A stretch of DNA of 18,463 nucleotides from a virus (IMGVR_UViG_2703718769_000006); one strand, 5' to 3'. Shown: positions 71 to 13,032, counted from the first letter of the stretch. Numbers and translations are program-made. Notes: generated by a model not told the origin, from the sequence alone.

Positions 71-1234
71 TTATGCTTTCTTTGCATCCTCAAAAACCTC
101 AGGGTGGGACAAATTTGGGACATCGTCACCCAATATGTCGTCAATTTTCCTCGCGTGCTCTGTCAAATGATTAGGTGCAAGGTGTGCGTACCTACGCACC
201 ATTTCGATAGACTCCCAGCCGCCCATTTCCTGAAGTACTGACAGCGGTACACCTGACTGAATTAACCAACTGGCCCAGGTATGGCGGAGGTCATGAAAAC
301 GGAAATTTTCAATTCCTGCCCGACGACATGCTGTTAACCACGATGTGTTATAGTCCAGGCGCATCTTTCTGATGCTTGGTGTCATTGTCCCGTCAGGCCT
401 TCTGGCAGCAGTGGTATAAACAAACACCCAGCGGTGATGTTTGCCTATTTGATCACGCAACACCTTGCAGGCAGTGTCATTCAGTGCGACCCCAATAGCG
501 CGGTTTGACTTACTGTCTTCAGGGTTTACCCAGGCAACACGTCGCTGCATATCGATTTGTTGCCACTCCAGATTAATAATGTTTGATCTCCTCAGGCCAG
601 TTGCCAGTGCAAATTTAACTACAGATTTCAGGGGATCAGAACATGCATCAATGAGTCTCCTGGCTTCTTCTTTTTCCAGCCATCTCACGCGTTTGTTTTT
701 TACGGCAGGTATTTTGATTACAGGTGCTTTTTCAAGCCATTTCCAGTCTCGCTCTGCGGCGCGCAGAATAGCCTTGATCATTGCCAGGTGTGTTGCTTTT
801 GTTTGCGTGCTCACCGATTTAGGTATATAGGCTGGTGGTTCTTTCCCTTTTCTTAATGCAGCCTCCACCTGCAACTTCCATCTCTCCTTTGTTTTTCGGT
901 TATACGCTTTGCTGATAACTGAGTAGATCATTGCCTCCGATATATCCTTAATCCTTATACCCTCGAAATGCTCAATCCAGAATGCGATTCTGGATTTATC
1001 GGAATCGATGGATTTCTTGTCGGCTTTTTCCTCAAGCCATCTCAGGCAGGCTTCTTCGAAAGTGACATCTGGCATATCCCCCAGTTTGTCTACTCGCCAG
1101 AGTTCTGCTTTTCGCTTGTCGTGCAACTCCTGAGCTTGCCGCTTGTCCTTTGTGCCAAGAGACTCCTTAATTCGCTTCCCGCCCGGGAGCGAGTACGAGG
1201 CGTACCATATTTCACCTCTGCGGAAGAGTGACAT
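71..1234 (-). CDS. int: Tyrosine-type phage integrase
   Basis: 387-aa ORF with C-terminal tyrosine recombinase motifs (…[41 protein letters not shown]…). Terminal gene, directly downstream of an excisionase-like ORF. Confidence 0.9.
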
Positions 1235-1747: not shown

Positions 1748-1968
1748 TGGTTATATTCCTGGTGTGCCATATCATAAACACGGCGTGCCGTGAGGTATGT
1801 TGTGGCTAACGTCGTCCGTATCCAGAAACATCCCCGGGTTGTGACGGTCATTTCCGGTACTTTGAACTTCAGTGCATCAACGATATGCTGGTGCTTTCGG
1901 CATTCGAATAGCGAACTGGTGATAACAACACTTGCTGCCGAACCATGACTTTCAAATGAAATATTCAT
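1735..1968 (-). CDS. Hypothetical early protein (about 77 aa)
   Basis: ORF 1735..1983; the Met at 1968 is preceded by GAGG with a 9-nt spacer. Sits immediately downstream of exo. Confidence 0.45.
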   Translation of the reverse strand: MNISFESHGSAASVVITSSLFECRKHQHIVDALKFKVPEMTVTTRGCFWIRTTLATTYLTARRVYDMAHQEYNQCSS

Positions 1969-1992
1969 ATATGAGAACCTCATTGTTACTGG

Positions 1993-2673
1993 CTATCGCC
2001 ATTGCTCCCCAAATACAAAACTAATTTCAGCCAGTGCTTCGTCCATTTTTTCGATGAATTCCGGCACCATCTCGTCAAAACCAGCCATGTATTTTTCATC
2101 CCGCTCGACCACGACATAATGCAGGCCTTCACGCTTCATGCGCGGGTCATAGTTGGCGAAGTACCAGGCATCTTTTCGAGTCACCCACATGCTGAATTGC
2201 ACCTGGGCCATGTAAGCTGATTTTATGGCCTCGAAACCACCGAGCCGGAATTTCATGAAATCCCGGGAGGTAAACGGACATTTCAGCTCAAGGCCGTTGC
2301 CGTCACTGCATAATCCATCCGGAGAGCAGGCGGTACGCATACTTTCGTCGCGATAGATGATCGGGGATTCAGTAATATTCACGCCGGAAGTAAACTCAAA
2401 CAGGGCTCTGGCGTCGTTCTCGTACTGTTTTCCCCATGCCAGGGCTTTGGCGTTAACTTCCGGGGCCACACCCGTGCAGACCTCAGCCAGCAGAGTGTGG
2501 AAGTAGGACATTTTCATGTCAGGCCATTTCTTTCCGGAGCGGGGTTTTGCTATCACGTTGTGAACTTCTGAAGCTGTGATGACCCCGAGCCGTAATTTTT
2601 GCCATGCATAATCTCCCTGCTCGACACCTCTCACGTCGATCCCGGTACGTTGTAGGATAATTTCTGGTGTCAT
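1993..2673 (-). CDS. exo: Lambda-type 5'-3' exonuclease (Red alpha)
   Basis: 226-aa product ([21 protein letters not shown]…GEQWR) is near-identical along its length to lambda Exo as I recall it. Start overlaps the bet stop. Confidence 0.95.
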
Positions 2674-6965: not shown

Positions 6966-7011
6966 TTTAAAAAAGGGCGGATATCAGCCAGCAATTAAAC
7001 TGATATCCGCC
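6966..7011 (-). terminator. Strong rho-independent terminator, possibly the 3' end of a small RNA
   Basis: Perfect 12-bp inverted repeat GGCGGATATCAG…CTGATATCCGCC (6976-6987 / 7000-7011) followed on the minus strand by UUUUUU. Sits inside a 440-bp stretch with no minus-strand ORF (6811-7252). Confidence 0.55.
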
Positions 7012-7165
7012 AATGACTACACACAGCAATGTTGTTATTCACAACCGGAAGCGCACGGTCGAAGAAATCTAACGACAAGCCTTCAAAGGGAAAGAGTCTT
7101 CGCCGTGCGCTTTCGTGTTGCACCCTGGCTTTTCAGGGTAATATCTGTTCAGTAAACTGACAGTG

Positions 7166-7194
7166 CCGGATGCTCACCCGTGTCCGGCGCACGA
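7166..7194 (+). promoter_or_regulatory. Conserved leader element, copy A
   Basis: CCGGATGCTCACCCGTGTCCGGCGCACGA; 27 of 29 positions match the reverse complement of 15775-15803. It ends exactly 58 nt upstream of the ATG at 7253 and is followed by the hairpin CTCCAC-N7-GTGGAG. Confidence 0.5.
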
Positions 7195-7252
7195 ACTCCA
7201 CCTGACCCGTGGAGAACTCCTCAACTACAAACCCCGTAAGGAGAGTGAATTT

Positions 7253-7462
7253 ATGACACAAGAAGAAAAAGTGATGTTTCTGATGCGGCTGGCTGTCGAT
7301 ACCTACAACACACAATTCAGGGAGAAAGATATACCTCAAAAGGCAGTTCCTGCCGCGGTAGATAAGGGCGGTGCTATTGCCGTATTTTACGATGCATTTG
7401 AATCATTTTTTGATGAAAAACTCGATGCTGTTAGCGACTTCGGAACATCGAGTAATAAATAA
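7253..7462 (+). CDS. Small hypothetical protein A (69 aa), antisense to the pL operon
   Basis: Strong SD AAGGAGAG 7 nt before the ATG at 7253 (ORF track 7163..7462). Product MTQEEKVMFLMRLAVDTYNTQFREKD… Overlaps the 3' end of the convergent minus ORF by about 32 nt. Confidence 0.5.
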   Translation: MTQEEKVMFLMRLAVDTYNTQFREKDIPQKAVPAAVDKGGAIAVFYDAFESFFDEKLDAVSDFGTSSNK

Positions 7463-7790
7463 CGTTCATTACGGTTCTTAAACAACAATCAGTGGGCTTG
7501 ATGTTGTTCTTTTCAAGCTCACTTGCCATCACTTCCATTATTCTTGCGCTTACACGAATTATTTGGTGGCTGTAAGCGACGCAACTGTCGCTGATATTGC
7601 TGTTTATTTCTATTACTTCATTTTCACCATTAGCATCAACTTCGGATGCGCTGTTTTCATTATCCTGTTTCAGTGCTTTTTCTGCCATCTGGATGCGTGT
7701 CAGCGTTGCGGAATTTGGGCTAAGTCGATAAACCTGTTTGGCATCTTCCAGAAGCAGGGCGATAATGTGCTTCAGTTCTGTTTCGTTCAT
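7431..7790 (-). CDS. Hypothetical protein (about 119 aa)
   Basis: ORF 7431..7811; the Met at 7790 has GGAG 6 nt upstream. Lies 31 nt downstream of the 238-aa gene, suggesting an operon. Confidence 0.5.
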   Translation of the reverse strand: MNETELKHIIALLLEDAKQVYRLSPNSATLTRIQMAEKALKQDNENSASEVDANGENEVIEINSNISDSCVAYSHQIIRVSARIMEVMASELEKNNIKPTDCCLRTVMNVIYYSMFRSR

Positions 7791-7821
7791 AGTTAACTCC
7801 GGTAGTTGCAATTTATTAATA

Positions 7822-8535
7822 TCAGGCGGTCAGTTCTTTAAGCTTCTGAACAGCTTTATTCATTTCATCCATACAGTCGATGAATTCGTCCAGTTTAAGC
7901 TGCATTTTTCCGGCGGCCTGAAGAATTTCAAGTTTTAAGGGCGCAAGTTTTTTGTTGAATACATCATCTTCCTGGCGTTTTTTCTCCGCAATTTCGGCGG
8001 CTTTCAGCAATTCTTCCGCCTGCTTTCTGAGTATTTCTGGTGAAGGTGAAACTGCTTTTAGGTTATTCATTTCAGGTTCCTGTTGTTGCAGAATTAATTT
8101 GTTGCATTCTCTGCGTGAGCGTTTCATTGCAGATTCGCACTTCTTGCAATAAATGGCTCTCCCGTCACGTTTGCTGGCATCTGAATAAAAATCATCGACT
8201 GATTTTGTCTGCCCGCATCTGGTACATAATTTTGATTGAAGGTCCTTAATGATTGTGACGTTTCCTTCCCGCTTGGGATATCCATATTTTTTGTGGCGGA
8301 AAAAGGTTACTCCGTTACCAGAACCTTCTTTTCTGACCTTAAATACAATGATGCTTTCCCGTTTATCGATAAAATCTATGAGCTGGTTTCTCTCCTTTCC
8401 TGACAGTTCGGCAAATGTCTTAACTTTTTTAGTAACTTCCGTAAGGCGAACGCCGTCAGGCATTTTTTCAACGAAGTTTTTAATCTCTGCAAGCGGACGC
8501 CATAATTTTTGCGGCAAAACTGAAGGCGTGGTCAT
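7822..8535 (-). CDS. Hypothetical protein with Cys4 zinc-ribbon-like motif and C-terminal predicted coiled coil (237 aa)
   Basis: ATG at 8535 preceded by GAGGTG. Motif CTRCGQTK…x21…CKKCESAMKR; K/E-rich heptad-like C-terminus. No family recognised. Confidence 0.6.
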   Translation of the reverse strand: MTTPSVLPQKLWRPLAEIKNFVEKMPDGVRLTEVTKKVKTFAELSGKERNQLIDFIDKRESIIVFKVRKEGSGNGVTFFRHKKYGYPKREGNVTIIKDLQSKLCTRCGQTKSVDDFYSDASKRDGRAIYCKKCESAMKRSRRECNKLILQQQEPEMNNLKAVSPSPEILRKQAEELLKAAEIAEKKRQEDDVFNKKLAPLKLEILQAAGKMQLKLDEFIDCMDEMNKAVQKLKELTA

Positions 8536-8572
8536 CAATCACCTCGCTTTTTTTTACTGATTTGTTTATGCC

Positions 8573-8601
8573 AAAAATAAAGGCCACCATCAGGCAGCCT
8601 T
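8573..8601 (-). terminator. Terminator-like hairpin after the ral-like ORF (has U-runs on both strands)
   Basis: Minus-strand RNA AAGGCUGCC-UGAU-GGUGGCCUU followed by UAUUUUUGG. The plus strand also has GTTTTTCTGTTT after the stem. Confidence 0.45.
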
Positions 8602-8757
8602 GTTTTTCTGTTTGCTAAGTTCTCTGGCAATCATGGCCGTAGTTCGTATTGCCCACACCATTGATTTGTATCAATAGTCGTAGTCATCCGGATAGTCCTG
8701 GTATTGTTCCATCACATCCTGTGGATGCTCTTCGAACTCTTCAAATTCTTCTTCCAT
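8590..8757 (-). pseudogene. ral: Ral-like (restriction alleviation) reading frame interrupted by an in-frame TGA
   Basis: Minus-strand frame reads MEEEFEEFEEHPQDVMEQYQDYPDDYDY-stop-YKSMVWAIRTTAMIARELSKQKNKAA-stop. The C-terminal 19 residues closely match the lambda Ral C-terminus (…WAIRTTAMIARELGKQNNKAA) as recalled from memory. The TGA at 8671-8673 splits it into a 28-aa and a 23-aa piece. Confidence 0.4.
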
Positions 8758-8888
8758 ATCTCACTTCAAATAAGTGGTTTGCTGCCTAATTTTATTTTCT
8801 GGCGACCAACACAAGTCACACCCGTTTCACTGCGTGGCTTGCGGTAGTAAATTTTGTTAGTCCAAACAATAAAATCTACTGAAGTGGG

Positions 8889-9221
8889 TTATGACCATTT
8901 TTTATTTGGATTTCGTTGGTGAGCGTGGTTAACAACTCTGTGCATTATATCCTCATATTTTTCATCTTTAATTTTTTCAACATCTCGAGGAAATGGTGTT
9001 GCTAATGCTTTGTCAACTTTGTCCATTGGGTCTTCATTAATCTTATATTCCGGACCGTCATCTATAGCATTAAATCCAGGTGTTATACCGTTTTCTAATG
9101 CATATGCTATTCTCTTTTCCCAGCTCGCTATCCTCCTTCTGTCTCGAGATGTAAGGCTTCTATCAGATACTTTTCTGTTTTGTCCGCGATTAGGATTAAC
9201 ATAAATAGTCTTTTTCACCAT
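8889..9221 (-). CDS. Hypothetical basic protein (about 110 aa)
   Basis: ORF 8889..9242 with candidate starts at 9221, 9227 and 9242, all overlapping the 3' end of N (stop at 9196) in another frame. No family recognised. Confidence 0.4.
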   Translation of the reverse strand: MVKKTIYVNPNRGQNRKVSDRSLTSRDRRRIASWEKRIAYALENGITPGFNAIDDGPEYKINEDPMDKVDKALATPFPRDVEKIKDEKYEDIMHRVVNHAHQRNPNKKWS

Positions 9222-9534
9222 AAGCATACTCAATAAGTCCATACGGTGGTTTACTGTACAATTTTATTTTTTGAACTGCATGTATTTTGTTTCCTAATGG
9301 GTTTGAATCCTTGTAATAAGTACTTCTGTTTTTGCGCTCGACTTCTTCTGCCTTCTTGTTGCGAAGGCTGCCGAGTGATGCTGCTTTGTCTGCTCTGACG
9401 CAACCAGAGATCTTTAGCGCAATCTTCCGCGTCAGTCTTTCACTACTGCGCCGCTCTGCAATAAGTTCTTCCCTGCGAGCTTTATAGCGGCTTTTTGCCG
9501 TACCTTTGGATTCTTTCCAGATTATGGTTACCAT
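9196..9534 (-). CDS. N: N-like transcription antiterminator (phage-21 type)
   Basis: ATG at 9534 with AAGGAG 6 nt upstream. The N-terminus MVTIIWKESKGTAKSRYKARREELIAERR matches the phage 21 N arginine-rich motif as I recall it; the C-terminal region (…ERKNRSTYYKD…QKIK…) resembles lambda N. nutL lies upstream. Confidence 0.8.
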   Translation of the reverse strand: MVTIIWKESKGTAKSRYKARREELIAERRSSERLTRKIALKISGCVRADKAASLGSLRNKKAEEVERKNRSTYYKDSNPLGNKIHAVQKIKLYSKPPYGLIEYAYGEKDYLC

Positions 9535-9643
9535 GATGGTCTCCTTTAAGTGGCTTTGGTGTATGACGCGTCGAGGTGTTTTTCTTCTCGATCGCGGCCT
9601 TGCAACTGAAATTCGCGTCATCCCCAAAACCACTTAGATTTTG

Positions 9644-9684
9644 GTCTCAACGGTTAGGTTGAGAGTCCATCAATGTTAAAGAGC
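9644..9684 (-). promoter_or_regulatory. nutL (boxA and boxB)
   Basis: Minus strand reads GCTCTTTAACATTG (boxA-like, the same sequence as at nutR), then a hairpin CTCAAC-CTAACC-GTTGAG (boxB) upstream of N. Confidence 0.7.
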
Positions 9685-9733
9685 CTGCCAATCTGTTCCG
9701 TTTGGCTTCCAGCGTCCTGCTGTTGAATTGAAG

Positions 9734-9772
9734 ATAACCTAAGTTATCTGATTGTGCAATAACTATATTTAT
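9734..9772. promoter_or_regulatory. OL operator sites (pL region)
   Basis: ATAACCTAAGTTAT (9734-9747, perfect ATAAC-N4-GTTAT dyad) and ATAACTATATTTAT (9759-9772, one mismatch). Same half-site family as the cI-cro intergenic operators. Confidence 0.6.
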
Positions 9773-9867
9773 CATTTTATGGAAAGCGTTATAAATGGCT
9801 GATAACAAAAATATTTTATTTTTTGTGGTATCCGCGTGATATTTTCAAGGGGGAAAGGCTGATTGTT

Positions 9868-10089
9868 ATGGGTGATTGCATGTTAATCGAAGGGGAATTT
9901 GGTGTGTTGCACCAGCGGGTAGTCGAAATTCTAGGGGTGTCGTTGCTTGAGGTTATTGCTACTGGGGAAGCTATTTCAGCAGATGCTATTGCGGGAATGA
10001 TCCGAGTGCTTCACCATGATGAATTGGATGATCTCGCTGTGAAGTTAGCTATAGATGTGTTACTTCAGGATATGCGACTGTGTAATTAA
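9868..10089 (+). CDS. Small acidic hypothetical protein (73 aa) in the rex position, opposite strand to cI
   Basis: ORF 9823..10089; the Met at 9868 follows a purine-rich AAGGGGGAAAGG. Lies between OL and the cI 3' end, convergent with cI, and ends just before a bidirectional hairpin. Confidence 0.4.
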   Translation: MGDCMLIEGEFGVLHQRVVEILGVSLLEVIATGEAISADAIAGMIRVLHHDELDDLAVKLAIDVLLQDMRLCN

Positions 10090-10090
10090 G

Positions 10091-10117
10091 TAAATAAAAC
10101 CCGGCACTGGAGCCGGG
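10091..10117 (-). terminator. Terminator downstream of cI (bidirectional hairpin)
   Basis: CCCGGC-ACTGGA-GCCGGG stem-loop. On the minus strand it is followed by UUUUAUUUA; on the plus strand by a weaker GGAUUU. Confidence 0.55.
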
Positions 10118-10241
10118 GGATTTAGAAATGGCATTTTATGAATTGGCTACTTGGCGAATGGTTTACCATCGGTGGTATTGAGCACAATAAAAGGCCGTTC
10201 TTCGTGAGTGTTCTTATAGCAAAAGTTCAGTTGGAGTCTGA

Positions 10242-10949
10242 TTACCAGCTATGTGATGACCAGAACACTCGTCCTATGATTTTTACGTTTTTGTAGAATT
10301 CTTCTCTGTTCATTACTTCATCAGGATACTCTTCGCGGTTTATCGATCTGATAATTACCGATGTTGGTGTGGCTATTAGCGTTTTTACCCTTAACAAATC
10401 AGCTTGGCAAATTGCATATGTTTTACCATCCCTGATGCTCGTATCTTGCGTGTTTACCCCCACCACATCACCATCATGGAGTGTTGGCTCCATACTTTGC
10501 CCAACAACCCTGACCAACTTTGCCGCTTTTTCTGGAACTCCCATTTTTTTCAGGTAATAGCGCCTAAAAACTAGAGAGAATTCTGCGGACTCCTCCAATG
10601 CACAACTTCCTCCGCCAGCTGAAAGTGAAATATTTAGAAGGGGGAGCGCAACAAATTCGTCATTATCATTTTGATGATCATCCCAGGCGATAGCTTTTAA
10701 AGATGATTCCCGAGCATTAGATGGCTCTTCTGCGCTCTGTGGTCTCATTGACCCTATACCAGAGCTTAGCCACTCAGGGCGAACTCTTAACGCGTTGGCT
10801 AATTCGACCATTTTACGTGATCCGGTTGTTTTACCAGATGACATCTTTTGTATGGCTGGTTGTGATACCCCCACCATGTCTGCAAGTTGTGCTTGTGACA
10901 ACCCGGCTGAACTCATGGCGGCATTTAGTCTTTCTGCGAATGTTTTCAT
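10242..10949 (-). CDS. cI: CI-type prophage repressor (HTH plus S24 LexA-like autocleavage domain)
   Basis: 235-aa product with N-terminal HTH (LSQAQLADMVGVSQPAIQKM), an Ala-Gly cleavage region (SAGGG) and Ser/Lys dyad motifs (GQSMEP … KTLI). Divergent from cro with operators between them. Confidence 0.9.
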   Translation of the reverse strand: MKTFAERLNAAMSSAGLSQAQLADMVGVSQPAIQKMSSGKTTGSRKMVELANALRVRPEWLSSGIGSMRPQSAEEPSNARESSLKAIAWDDHQNDNDEFVALPLLNISLSAGGGSCALEESAEFSLVFRRYYLKKMGVPEKAAKLVRVVGQSMEPTLHDGDVVGVNTQDTSIRDGKTYAICQADLLRVKTLIATPTSVIIRSINREEYPDEVMNREEFYKNVKIIGRVFWSSHSW

Positions 10950-10955
10950 ACCTGT

Positions 10956-11034
10956 AATCTATAACCACGGTTATCAAAAGTAAAACAACAATTGTTATTG
11001 CTCTGTTGTATAACTCATGTTATTTTTGGTTATG
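10956..11034. promoter_or_regulatory. OR region: three operator dyads plus candidate pRM and pR
   Basis: Three sites of the form ATAAC-N4-GTTAT at 10961-10974 (ATAACCACGGTTAT), 10985-10998 (ACAACAATTGTTAT) and 11010-11023 (ATAACTCATGTTAT), centres about 24 bp apart. TAGATT on the minus strand (10956-10961) sits about 7 bp before the cI ATG, as for a leaderless pRM transcript. Confidence 0.7.
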
Positions 11035-11059
11035 CTTTATTTGCTGTAGAGGTATGCTC

Positions 11060-11284
11060 ATGAATTTAGTGATTCAGCGAGCCTTGAATATTGTTGGCAG
11101 TCAAAAACGACTTGCAGCTGATTGCGGCGTATCACAGCCCGCTGTTCATAAATGGTTGCGAGGCGGAAAAGTTTCTCCTGAAAAAGTTTTCGCTATCGTT
11201 AATGCCACCAATGGTCAGGTTAAGGCTTACGAAATTCGCCCGGACTTACCGCACCTGTTTCCTCATCCGAACCAGGCTGAATAA
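11060..11284 (+). CDS. cro: Cro-like small HTH regulator (74 aa)
   Basis: ORF 11006..11284; the ATG at 11060 has AGAGG 7 nt upstream. HTH segment QKRLAADCGVSQPAVHKWLRGG. Divergent from cI. Confidence 0.75.
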   Translation: MNLVIQRALNIVGSQKRLAADCGVSQPAVHKWLRGGKVSPEKVFAIVNATNGQVKAYEIRPDLPHLFPHPNQAE

Positions 11285-11291
11285 GTAACAC

Positions 11292-11333
11292 CGCTCTTTA
11301 ACATTGCTGGTCGTTCACCTCTAACAGGGTGAG
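11292..11333 (+). promoter_or_regulatory. nutR (boxA and boxB)
   Basis: CGCTCTTTAA (boxA-like) followed 12 nt later by the hairpin TCACC-TCTAACAG-GGTGA, between cro and cII. The boxB loop is CTAAC-rich like the nutL copy. Confidence 0.7.
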
Positions 11334-11399
11334 CAAACATCAGTGGCAAACCCATTGGGATTGCCGCTTAACCCCATATCAATATAGGAAAATTAACAA

Positions 11400-11696
11400 A
11401 TGTCACAAACAAGTTACAGCAAACTGTCGCAGCGCGATATCGATCGCGCTGAAACGGATTTACTTATCAACCTGTCAGTTCTGACGCAAAGGGGACTGGC
11501 GAAGATGATTGGCTGCCATGAATCGAAGGTCAGTCGTACCGACTGGCGATACATCGCGGCGATTTTATGTGCGTTCCAGATGGCATCTGATATCAGTCCG
11601 ATCAGCCGGGCTTTCCAGCATGCCATTCGCGTTCATGCAAATAAAAAACGTCCGGTTGGGGCCGGACGTTCTGAGCAAATCCTGATGAATATCTGA
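11400..11696 (+). CDS. cII: CII-like transcriptional activator
   Basis: 98-aa product; the C-terminus …NKKRPVGAGRSEQILMNI parallels lambda CII …NKKRPAATERSEQIQMEF. HTH in the middle; position after cro and nutR. Confidence 0.85.
   Translation: MSQTSYSKLSQRDIDRAETDLLINLSVLTQRGLAKMIGCHESKVSRTDWRYIAAILCAFQMASDISPISRAFQHAIRVHANKKRPVGAGRSEQILMNI
11641..11669 (-). terminator. oop-like antisense terminator within the cII 3' end
   Basis: Minus strand reads ACGTCCGG-CCCCAA-CCGGACGT followed by TTTTTTAT. Same position and orientation as the lambda oop terminator overlapping the cII C-terminus. Confidence 0.6.
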
Positions 11697-11760
11697 TATT
11701 CAGGCAGGGCATGGAGCAATACACGGGAATAATTCTGCCACATCTGGAAGAATTTCGCCA

Positions 11761-11916
11761 GCAACAACACCAACCGCAGCAGCCTGAAGCCGATTGGGTT
11801 AACCCGGAGATACCGGGACCGTCTGTGAAGATGTGCAGTCACACCAATGTGCAGTCACACCAACCGCAGCAGCCTGAAGCCGATTGGGTTAACCCGGGAG
11901 ATACCGGGACCGTCTG
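11761..11916. repeat. Two tandem copies of an approximately 60-bp repeat upstream of the O-like gene
   Basis: Copy A 11767-11826 and copy B 11857-11916: ACACCAACCGCAGCAGCCTGAAGCCGATTGGGTTAACCCGG(G)AGATACCGGGACCGTCTG. Each carries the dyads GGGTTAACCC and CCCGG-N5/6-CCGGG. The short tandem GTGCAGTCACACCAA occurs twice between them. Confidence 0.85.
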
Positions 11917-11949
11917 CGGTATGGAGTAAATCTTGTATGCGAGGGGACT

Positions 11950-13032
11950 ATGCGTAATTACGCAACAATTTCACCTCAGTTCTGGTTAGGCGATACAGGG
12001 CGAAAACTAAGGAAGTCTGGTCCGGAATGTATGGTAGTGGCGTTGTATATGATGACCTCGCCTCATTCCAATATGCTGGGCCTTTATTACCTGCCTGTTT
12101 TGTACATTGCTCACGAAACCGGACTTGATCCTGAAGGGGCTTCTAAGGGGCTTCAAATGGCTTGCGAGGCTGGTTTTTGCAGCTATGACCATGATTCTGA
12201 GGTTGTATGGGTGCATGAAATGGCAGCATGGCAGGTTGGTGAATCGCTGAAACCTGGCGATAACCGTTGTGCTGGGGTAAGAAATGAATATTCCGCGTTG
12301 CTGGAAAATCCTTTTTTATCATCATTTTATGATAGATATAAGGATGATTTCCACCTGGATGTCAGACGTGAATCATGTCGGAAAATTGAAGCCCCTTCAG
12401 AGCCCCTTTCAAGCCAAGAACAGGAACAGGAACAGGAACAGGAAAGAGATAAAACCCTTCTGGTCCATGGCGAAAAAATCGCCACGGACCCACTGGTGGA
12501 TTCTTGTCCCGTTCTGACTGAACGTCCAGGACCAGCTGGCATGACACCGGAAGCAGATTCCGGGCGTTGTGTGCAGCAGGTGCTGCTCGTCGAACCGGAG
12601 CAACAACACCAACCGCAGCAGCCTGAAGCCGATTCCGCGATGAGCGGGAAGCCGATTGGGTTAACCCGGGCGATGCCGGGACCGTCTGCGGGACGAGTTG
12701 ATTATCCTGACGTGTTCGAACGGGTCTGGCGTGAATATCCGCATCGGGCAGGGTCAAACCCGAAGAAATCCGCGTTCAATGCCTGGAGGGCCAGATTACG
12801 CGAAGGGGTGTCACCGGATGTCGTGCTGGATGGCGTGAGGCGTTACGCAAGATACCTGGAGGCTACCGGGAAAGCGGGAACTGAATTTGTTCAGCAGGCA
12901 TCGACGTTTTTTGGCCCGAACAGGAATTTCGAAAATCCGTGGTCGCTGCCGAAGGCTGGCGCAGTCAGCCTGCGTTGCGTGAATCACATTTCTGAACCGG
13001 ACACCGAAATTCCGCCGGGTTTCAGGGGGTAA
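11950..13032 (+). CDS. Replication initiator (O-like replisome organiser)
   Basis: 360-aa ORF directly upstream of a DnaC-like loader gene. Its central linker has low-complexity SQEQEQEQEQER and a third copy of the repeat. Function is assigned by position and architecture, not by a recognised motif. Confidence 0.65.
   Translation: MRNYATISPQFWLGDTGRKLRKSGPECMVVALYMMTSPHSNMLGLYYLPVLYIAHETGLDPEGASKGLQMACEAGFCSYDHDSEVVWVHEMAAWQVGESLKPGDNRCAGVRNEYSALLENPFLSSFYDRYKDDFHLDVRRESCRKIEAPSEPLSSQEQEQEQEQERDKTLLVHGEKIATDPLVDSCPVLTERPGPAGMTPEADSGRCVQQVLLVEPEQQHQPQQPEADSAMSGKPIGLTRAMPGPSAGRVDYPDVFERVWREYPHRAGSNPKKSAFNAWRARLREGVSPDVVLDGVRRYARYLEATGKAGTEFVQQASTFFGPNRNFENPWSLPKAGAVSLRCVNHISEPDTEIPPGFRG
12415..12444 (+). 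repeat. (CAGGAA)n hexanucleotide tandem repeat inside the O-like gene
   Basis: caagaa followed by four perfect caggaa units, encoding the EQ-repeat linker. Confidence 0.9.
12606..12691. repeat. Third, interrupted copy of the 60-bp repeat, inside the O-like coding sequence
   Basis: ACACCAACCGCAGCAGCCTGAAGCCGATT-[ccgcgatgagcgggaagccgatt]-GGGTTAACCCGGGCGATGCCGGGACCGTCTGCGG; the same unit as 11767-11826 with an internal duplication of GAAGCCGATT. Confidence 0.85.

Follow-up and report, generated by a model that had tools for sequence, protein, structure and literature searches.

Ral relieves restriction by type IA (EcoKI-type) enzymes and stimulates their modification activity (PMC12707154, PMC10695390), and for plating on hosts whose type I system is active it is a conditional requirement (PMC10695390). 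On the minus strand of an 18,463-nt stretch of viral DNA (IMGVR_UViG_2703718769_000006, hereafter the window) runs a reading frame which ends almost exactly as lambda Ral does. Upstream of this end the frame contains a TGA and, before it, 28 strongly acidic codons. A sequence-only reading, made without database searches, took the whole for a Ral-like frame with a diverged N-terminus, and considered an inactivated ral, a sequencing error, stop-codon readthrough or two separate micro-proteins. This raises the question whether the locus holds one unusual Ral protein, two small proteins or the remains of a gene. Here we report that it is a known gene pair, in which ral is a deletion pseudogene and orf28 is intact. 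We are highly confident that the locus represents the orf28-ral module in the leftward early (pL) operon of a lambdoid prophage, with ral inactivated.

Gene content and position of the locus

The window carries int-exo-bet-gam-RecE, ral with Nun/N, and the cI-cro-cII-replication region of a lambdoid prophage, and is 99.86% identical to one IMG/VR contig across 13.3 kb. The ral remnant lies in the early leftward operon with N/Nun on one side and the recombination genes on the other. Upstream of it are an N-like ORF (9196-9633) and a Nun-like ORF (8889-9242), and downstream RecE/gam/bet/exo-type ORFs. Both this place in the operon and the overlap of its start by orf28 are those of Ral. The features of the locus are collected in Table 1.

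Table 1. Features of the orf28-ral locus in the window (positions counted from the first letter of the window).
Feature	Position	Strand	Description
orf28 Shine-Dalgarno-like sequence	8760..8767	minus	GAAGTGAG in the window; GAGGTGA in most relatives
orf28 homologue	8671..8757	minus	intact 28 codons and TGA (8673..8671); product MEEEFEEFEEHPQDVMEQYQDYPDDYDY
ral 5' remnant	8631..8687	minus	ATG 8687..8685; codons 1-13 lambda-like (K7T), tail YELRP, TGA 8633..8631
23-codon ORF, apparently spurious	8590..8661	minus	MVWAIRTTAMIARELSKQKNKAA; ATG 8661..8659, stop 8592..8590; RefSeq WP_106425302.1
ral 3' remnant	8590..8655	minus	Ral codons 46-66 (WAIRTTAMIARELSKQKNKAA) and stop, out of frame with the ral start
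Deletion junction	8648..8655	minus	single surviving repeat copy TGGGCAAT; breakpoint ambiguous within 8 nt
Terminator-like hairpin and T-run	8571..8601	minus	9-bp stem with 5 GC pairs, then TATTTTTGGC / TATTTTTGG

The acidic reading frame is orf28

The 28-codon piece is as extremely acidic and aromatic as had been noticed, with 13 acidic, no basic and 6 aromatic residues. Its interpretation as a diverged Ral N-terminus does not hold. The peptide is identical at 27 of 28 positions to the product of lambda orf28 (NP_040623, lambdap47; MEEEFEEFEEHPQDVMEQYQDYPYDYDY) and matches the profile of the orf28 family, phrog_16060, end to end (positions 1-28 of 28, E=4.7e-17). Like lambda orf28 it has 28 codons, a stop within the 5' end of ral and a Shine-Dalgarno sequence in the same position; unlike it, the window allele carries Y24D and reads GAAGTGA instead of GAGGTGA.

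In the lambda annotation orf28 (34271..34357, complement) and ral (34087..34287, complement) overlap by 17 nt, and this overlap of the orf28 end with the ral start was found in lambda, in P22 and in every relative examined. The window has the same layout, with the orf28 stop 14-17 nt inside the ral coding start and in the -1 frame relative to ral. The TGA ahead of the Met is indeed there, separated from the ATG of the 23-codon ORF by three codons (YKS). It does not interrupt a Ral frame, being the native stop of orf28 in lambda, P22 and 117 of 117 loci bearing the ORF.

Across these 117 loci the length is 28 codons in all but one, 97 products are identical to that of lambda, and the common variants are synonymous. 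In the part of orf28 outside the ral overlap, third codon positions hold 12 of 15 variant events (binomial P=2.9e-4). P22 (BK000583) carries an unannotated 28-codon ORF at 413..499 on the plus strand, which overlaps the P22 ral start by 17 nt and whose product is 100% identical to that of lambda orf28, despite an identity of only ~74% between the P22 and lambda Ral proteins. The 28 codons are also kept in BTP1 and UPF_BP1, and 7 of the 9 nucleotide differences between the lambda and BTP1 genes, counted by eye in the alignment, fall on position 3. Because of this third-position variation and the identical product in P22, orf28 is probably a real coding gene, that is, a genuine microprotein.

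When the upstream 20-mers of the 117 loci were tabulated, a strong Shine-Dalgarno sequence, GAGGTGA, appeared in most alleles. The weakened GAAGTGA of the window is due to a G>A change at ral nt -77; in the loci examined this change was confined to deleted alleles, and Y24D to the deleted-ral lineage of the window. Together these two changes hint that constraint on orf28 may have relaxed after the death of ral. The frame is open in 31 of 31 readable deleted alleles, in one of them shortened to 26 codons. In P22 and in most prophages orf28 is unannotated.

The ral gene is broken by a 103-nt deletion

The ral frame, +1 relative to orf28, opens inside the end of the acidic ORF and reads MTTTIDTNQWCGQ as does lambda Ral (NP_040622; MTTTIDKNQWCGQFKRCNGCKLQSECMVKPEEMFPVMEDGKYVDKWAIRTTAMIARELGKQNNKAA, N-terminus MTTTIDKNQWCGQFKRC), including Cys11. 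The earlier statement that the N-terminal Cys motif is missing is thus correct for the frame that had been followed and incorrect for the locus as a whole. From the ral ATG the window now encodes 18 residues, MTTTIDTNQWCGQYELRP, and then a stop.

Alignment of window positions 8560-8800 with lambda gives a single 103-nt gap in the window between near-identical flanks. At the two ends of this gap the lambda sequence has TGGACAAT (ral nt 33-40) and TGGGCAAT (ral nt 136-143), imperfect 8-nt direct repeats whose copies start 103 nt apart in intact ral. With the deletion, Ral residues 14-45 plus one base are lost, and the frame is shifted, since 103 = 34x3+1. The lambda and P22 Ral proteins both have four cysteines (C11, C17, C20 and C26 in lambda numbering). 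The window keeps C11 alone, in the 18-residue product. The Ral domain of ~66 residues is found on no single polypeptide; no ORF spans more than 21 of the 66 profile positions.

In its organization the remnant resembles lambda ral (PF11058, phrog_1055): it lies in the pL operon downstream of N/Nun, it has orf28 ahead with the 17-nt overlap and the same terminator-like hairpin behind, and its codons 1-13 and 46-66 are recognisably Ral. Unlike lambda ral, it misses 103 nt, its frame is broken and C17, C20 and C26 are gone, which makes it a pseudogene and not a functional member of the family. There is nothing unusual in this dead ral, which an internal deletion of 103 bases has broken. Of the possibilities put forward earlier, an inactivated ral was the right one, with the qualification that the lesion is the frameshifting deletion and not the TGA.

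The hairpin, whose 5' arm is formed by the end of the ral coding sequence with its stop codon, is also conserved in lambda and other phages that bear ral. As a side observation, the terminator flank is shared with Stx phages (VT2-Sakai-type matches) that carry another gene in place of the orf28-ral module.

Appearance of a single split frame

The start of orf28 lies 70 nt before that of ral, and the stranded Ral codons lie at offset 102. As both 70 and the deletion length of 103 equal 1 modulo 3, Ral codons 46-66 land in the frame of orf28. The impression of one frame split by a TGA arises from these stranded codons standing, in the same frame, behind orf28's own stop.

The same arrangement is what could suggest programmed UGA readthrough or recoding, by which orf28 would be fused to the Ral C-terminus in an acidic-Ral chimera: after the deletion the two pieces share a frame with one TGA between them. 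This in-frame layout is a by-product of the deletion. In every intact relative the frame past the orf28 TGA is not the Ral frame, so that no continuation beyond the stop is conserved. Furthermore, stop codons accumulate in the downstream remnants, and an Rfam scan of window positions 7000-11500 returned nothing at E<=1. We give readthrough practically no credence.

The 23-codon ORF as a fragment of Ral

The C-terminal likeness to Ral, for which an alignment check had been proposed, lies far above chance. The 23-mer matches Pfam PF11058 (Ral) at positions 46-66 of 66 with E=3.4e-9 and 36.6 bits, and 19 of 21 residues agree with lambda Ral 46-66, the differences being G59S and N62K. The PF11058 gathering cut-off is 25 bits, which is here exceeded by a fragment, and the RefSeq product name 'antirestriction Ral family protein' follows from this score above the family threshold.

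Could this ORF encode a functional mini-Ral, re-initiated after the orf28 stop and keeping the HsdM-contacting part? Its score and its PGAP name would fit, its ATG lies just 9 nt past the orf28 stop, and the deletion allele is fairly common and found in viable phages. Against these points, its match extends over only 21 of the 66 positions in the profile, and all four cysteines are gone from it. Its ATG-GTG is ral codons 9-11 read out of frame (caATGGTGtgg), and no Shine-Dalgarno sequence is visible upstream of the ATG. Moreover, the stranded frame decays across alleles. Among 32 deleted alleles it carries A52T, A55S, A55V, L58F, L58P, T50A+T51A, G59S+N62K and N63Y, as well as two independent nonsense changes, K60* and Q61*; alleles with the A-type junction (described below) have A47 changed to T. 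The version of the window itself, G59S/N62K, occurs within IMG/VR in deleted alleles only. Variants of the stranded codons that are unseen in the intact set comprise 12 nonsynonymous and 2 synonymous changes, a nonsynonymous count inflated by the intact baseline, for which the top 80 protein hits were taken, every one of them 100% identical to lambda Ral. Deposited phages, looked at without this bias, hold E. coli-type Ral with at least 95% identity in 55 records.

Nonsense and proline changes of this kind are hard to reconcile with a functional peptide. We therefore regard a mini-Ral as very improbable; to judge from its substitutions, the 23-codon 'Ral family protein' appears to be a decaying fragment. 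A stable WAIRTTAMIARE-containing peptide made from the window allele would run contrary to the pseudogene reading. As for the suggestion of two separate micro-proteins, it applies to orf28, which is separate and apparently under coding constraint, and fails for the 23-codon piece.

In most genomes the 72-nt remnant goes under the RefSeq/PGAP name 'antirestriction Ral family protein', as if it were intact (for instance WP_106425302.1, WP_353654437.1, WP_106425222.1). The equivalents of window positions 8590-8661 are 9014..9085 in L002 and 3014..3085 in L003, L004 and L005. The annotation of this one pseudogene is inconsistent, as PGAP calls it 'missing N-terminus' in FG31-1 and 'frameshifted' in EC291, which is correct. 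Propagation of the 23-residue fragment through RefSeq inflates counts of anti-restriction genes.

Distribution of the deleted allele

The deletion, in two junction variants, is present in at least 22 complete E. coli genomes, 26 IMG/VR contigs and 2 plaque-forming phages. A 46-nt junction probe, too short for intact alleles to seed, matched 16 of 5,426 complete E. coli genomes, 11 of them at 100%, and a probe for the A-type junction added at least 6 further genomes. These genome counts are lower bounds, as the 28-nt seed of megablast can miss deleted alleles. In IMG/VR, 12 contigs have the junction of the window, TGGGCAAT, and 14 the alternative (A-type) junction, TGGACAAT-ACGA. The two phages, found with a blastn probe among deposited phages, are ECP1, which was isolated on MG1655, and E212. 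Altogether the deletion occurs in at least five different prophage backbones. By comparison, the missing 103-nt segment is present in 793 complete E. coli genomes at 886 places, and a Ral protein scan of IMG/VR yielded 404 loci. Roughly 2-6% of ral loci carry the deletion.

A sequencing or assembly error, with an intact ral in the true sequence, had been among the original possibilities, and short indels are indeed common assembly artefacts. The present lesion is a clean loss of 103 nt at a direct repeat and not a homopolymer indel. Its 46-nt junction is identical in 11 complete genomes from different laboratories, with related junctions in 11 more, and the deletion recurs in the independently assembled IMG/VR contigs and in the two independently sequenced phage isolates. 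The deletion is a real allele, and the chance of an error here is negligible.

Origin of the deletion

The 103-nt loss may have arisen by slipped-strand mispairing or microhomology-mediated joining at the repeat. The left repeat copy is TGGACAAT in 80 of 81 intact alleles, and both junction types are to be expected from this common imperfect repeat. A premutation to a perfect repeat (synonymous GGA>GGG, giving TGGGCAAT on the left) was considered and found unnecessary, the A-type TGGACAAT junction being equally common among deleted alleles (14 contigs); few intact alleles (5 IMG/VR contigs) have TGGGCAAT as their left copy. Hairpin-assisted slippage was also rejected, since the DNA fold of the intact segment is no better than that of shuffles (z=0.47).

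It is quite possible, though we lean slightly against it, that the deletion is a recurrent hotspot or a positively selected switch-off of ral in resident prophages, and not a single old allele spread by recombination. Recurrence would be compatible with the pseudogene explanation. It is favoured by the two junction variants, which the imperfect repeat would yield, and by the variety of prophage backbones; those backbones could equally stem from one origin through the free recombination of lambdoid modules, and the A/G difference of the junctions could be one point mutation. Deleted alleles are also polymorphic at sites that segregate among intact alleles, 12 nt to the left and 7 nt to the right of the junction repeat, with all four combinations present. 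This implies either several independent deletions or recombination very near the junction. An argument for recurrence from nearest neighbours proved invalid, because private mutations gained since the deletion give the same picture with one origin.

Certain backgrounds hold more than their share of deleted alleles, which suggests few origins. Other repeats in ral are equal or better, exact 7-mers among them, so that neither the quality of the repeat nor a hairpin would single out this site; an analogous 130-nt deletion between exact 7-mers, taken as a control, was absent from IMG/VR, which weakens the case for slippage and speaks for recurrence. A host-side benefit of loss is conceivable, as expression of Ral makes hosts more sensitive to phage (bioRxiv 10.1101/2023.04.06.535777).

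The lambda-type and P22-type versions of ral are nearly the same as far as CAATGGTGT and once more from GTCGATAAATGGGCAAT onwards, and diverge in between (alignment columns ~147-240). The central part that diverges corresponds almost exactly to the 103 nt missing at the junction of the window (8648-8655). In P22-type alleles the left repeat (TAGTCGTT) is absent.

Consequences of the loss of Ral

A phage of this type would supply no active Ral, and de novo methylation by EcoKI-type (type IA) restriction-modification enzymes would not be stimulated. Progeny of the prophage, without the protection of Ral, should be more exposed to EcoKI-type restriction in a new host. The existence of the plaque-forming phages ECP1 and E212 indicates that loss of Ral is tolerated. 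The biological weight of the lesion is small: it leaves one prophage without Ral, as is the case in a few percent of ral-bearing lambdoid phages.

Two proteins considered as compensation for the loss were rejected. One is the product of a 238-aa ORF (7822-8538, minus strand; phrog_2539) directly downstream of the ral remnant. Its CxxC...CxxC zinc ribbon (aa ~100-163) matches PHROGs labelled Lar-like restriction alleviation, endonuclease VII and HNH. No Pfam family, that of Lar included, scored above threshold and no PDB relative was found for this ORF; the Lar-like match is that of a generic zinc ribbon, and the label looks generic rather than specific. The other is an 82-aa acidic protein of ECP1 (1761..2009), annotated 'antirestriction protein ral'. 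It belongs to phrog_14587 ('anti-restriction protein'), is unrelated to Ral (BLASTP E=16) and is absent from the window. The phrog_14587 protein adjoins both intact and deleted ral, and its label may be circular.

A possible role of orf28

From the N-antiterminated pL transcript, orf28 would still be translated, as an acidic peptide of 3.65 kDa. The gene is listed as hypothetical and non-essential in a CRISPRi screen of lambda (PMC10695390), it was deleted uncommented along with ral in strains of lambda (PMC2327257), Silas et al. did not include it in their test of 200 accessory genes (bioRxiv 10.1101/2023.04.06.535777), and a literature search by its identifiers led to gene tables only.

With T7 Ocr and ArdA, which are linked to evasion of type I restriction, orf28 shares a strongly acidic character, residence on a mobile element and, in its case, an adjoining anti-restriction gene. 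Ocr and ArdA are well over 100 residues long, as compared to 28 for orf28. In searches against known DNA-mimic families the peptide hit no Pfam family at E<=0.01, no NCBIfam, and only phrog_16060 among the PHROGs. A tblastn search with the peptide gave no hits, probably owing to the low-complexity filter. The likeness to DNA mimics thus appears to be one of composition only. We think it unlikely, if worth pursuing, that orf28 is a translated 28-residue acidic-aromatic microprotein (net -13) which itself serves in anti-defence or host takeover and which selection maintains even where ral is dead. Such a role would be compatible with the third-position variation, with the identity of the lambda and P22 products against ~74% for Ral and with the open frame in deleted alleles; orf28 might then work together with Ral or enhance it, or imitate nucleic acid or the acidic tail of a protein. 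Tiny, extremely acidic and conserved at least as well as Ral, orf28 is the part of this locus with research value.

The orf28 pattern was also met in 24 species-representative assemblies of unrelated taxa (Shewanella, Pseudomonas, Nocardioides, Paenibacillus, Bradyrhizobium and others). Over the tested segment 21 of the 24 are 100% identical to lambda; several are contigs of ~48.4-48.5 kb, and several contig names give roughly 1x coverage. These 21 represent lambda control DNA or laboratory contamination, and a host range of orf28 drawn from species-representative genomes was dropped.

Further observations in the window

The Nun-like transcription termination factor (minus strand) belongs to phrog_5632 (E=2e-68) and has ~93% DNA identity to HK022 nun. 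The N-like antiterminator ORF (minus strand; phrog_271) lies directly upstream of it with a 47-nt overlap. The same N-like/Nun-like tandem is found in the Stx phage PA28, and RefSeq names both proteins 'hypothetical' or 'regulator'. In BLAST comparison with related loci, two segments of ~60 nt (11767-11825 and 11857-11916), which lie ~90 nt apart, cross-matched at 98%. They are located in or next to a small ORF (11711-11929) just upstream of a 360-aa replication-type ORF (11950-13032), and could form a repeat or iteron element.
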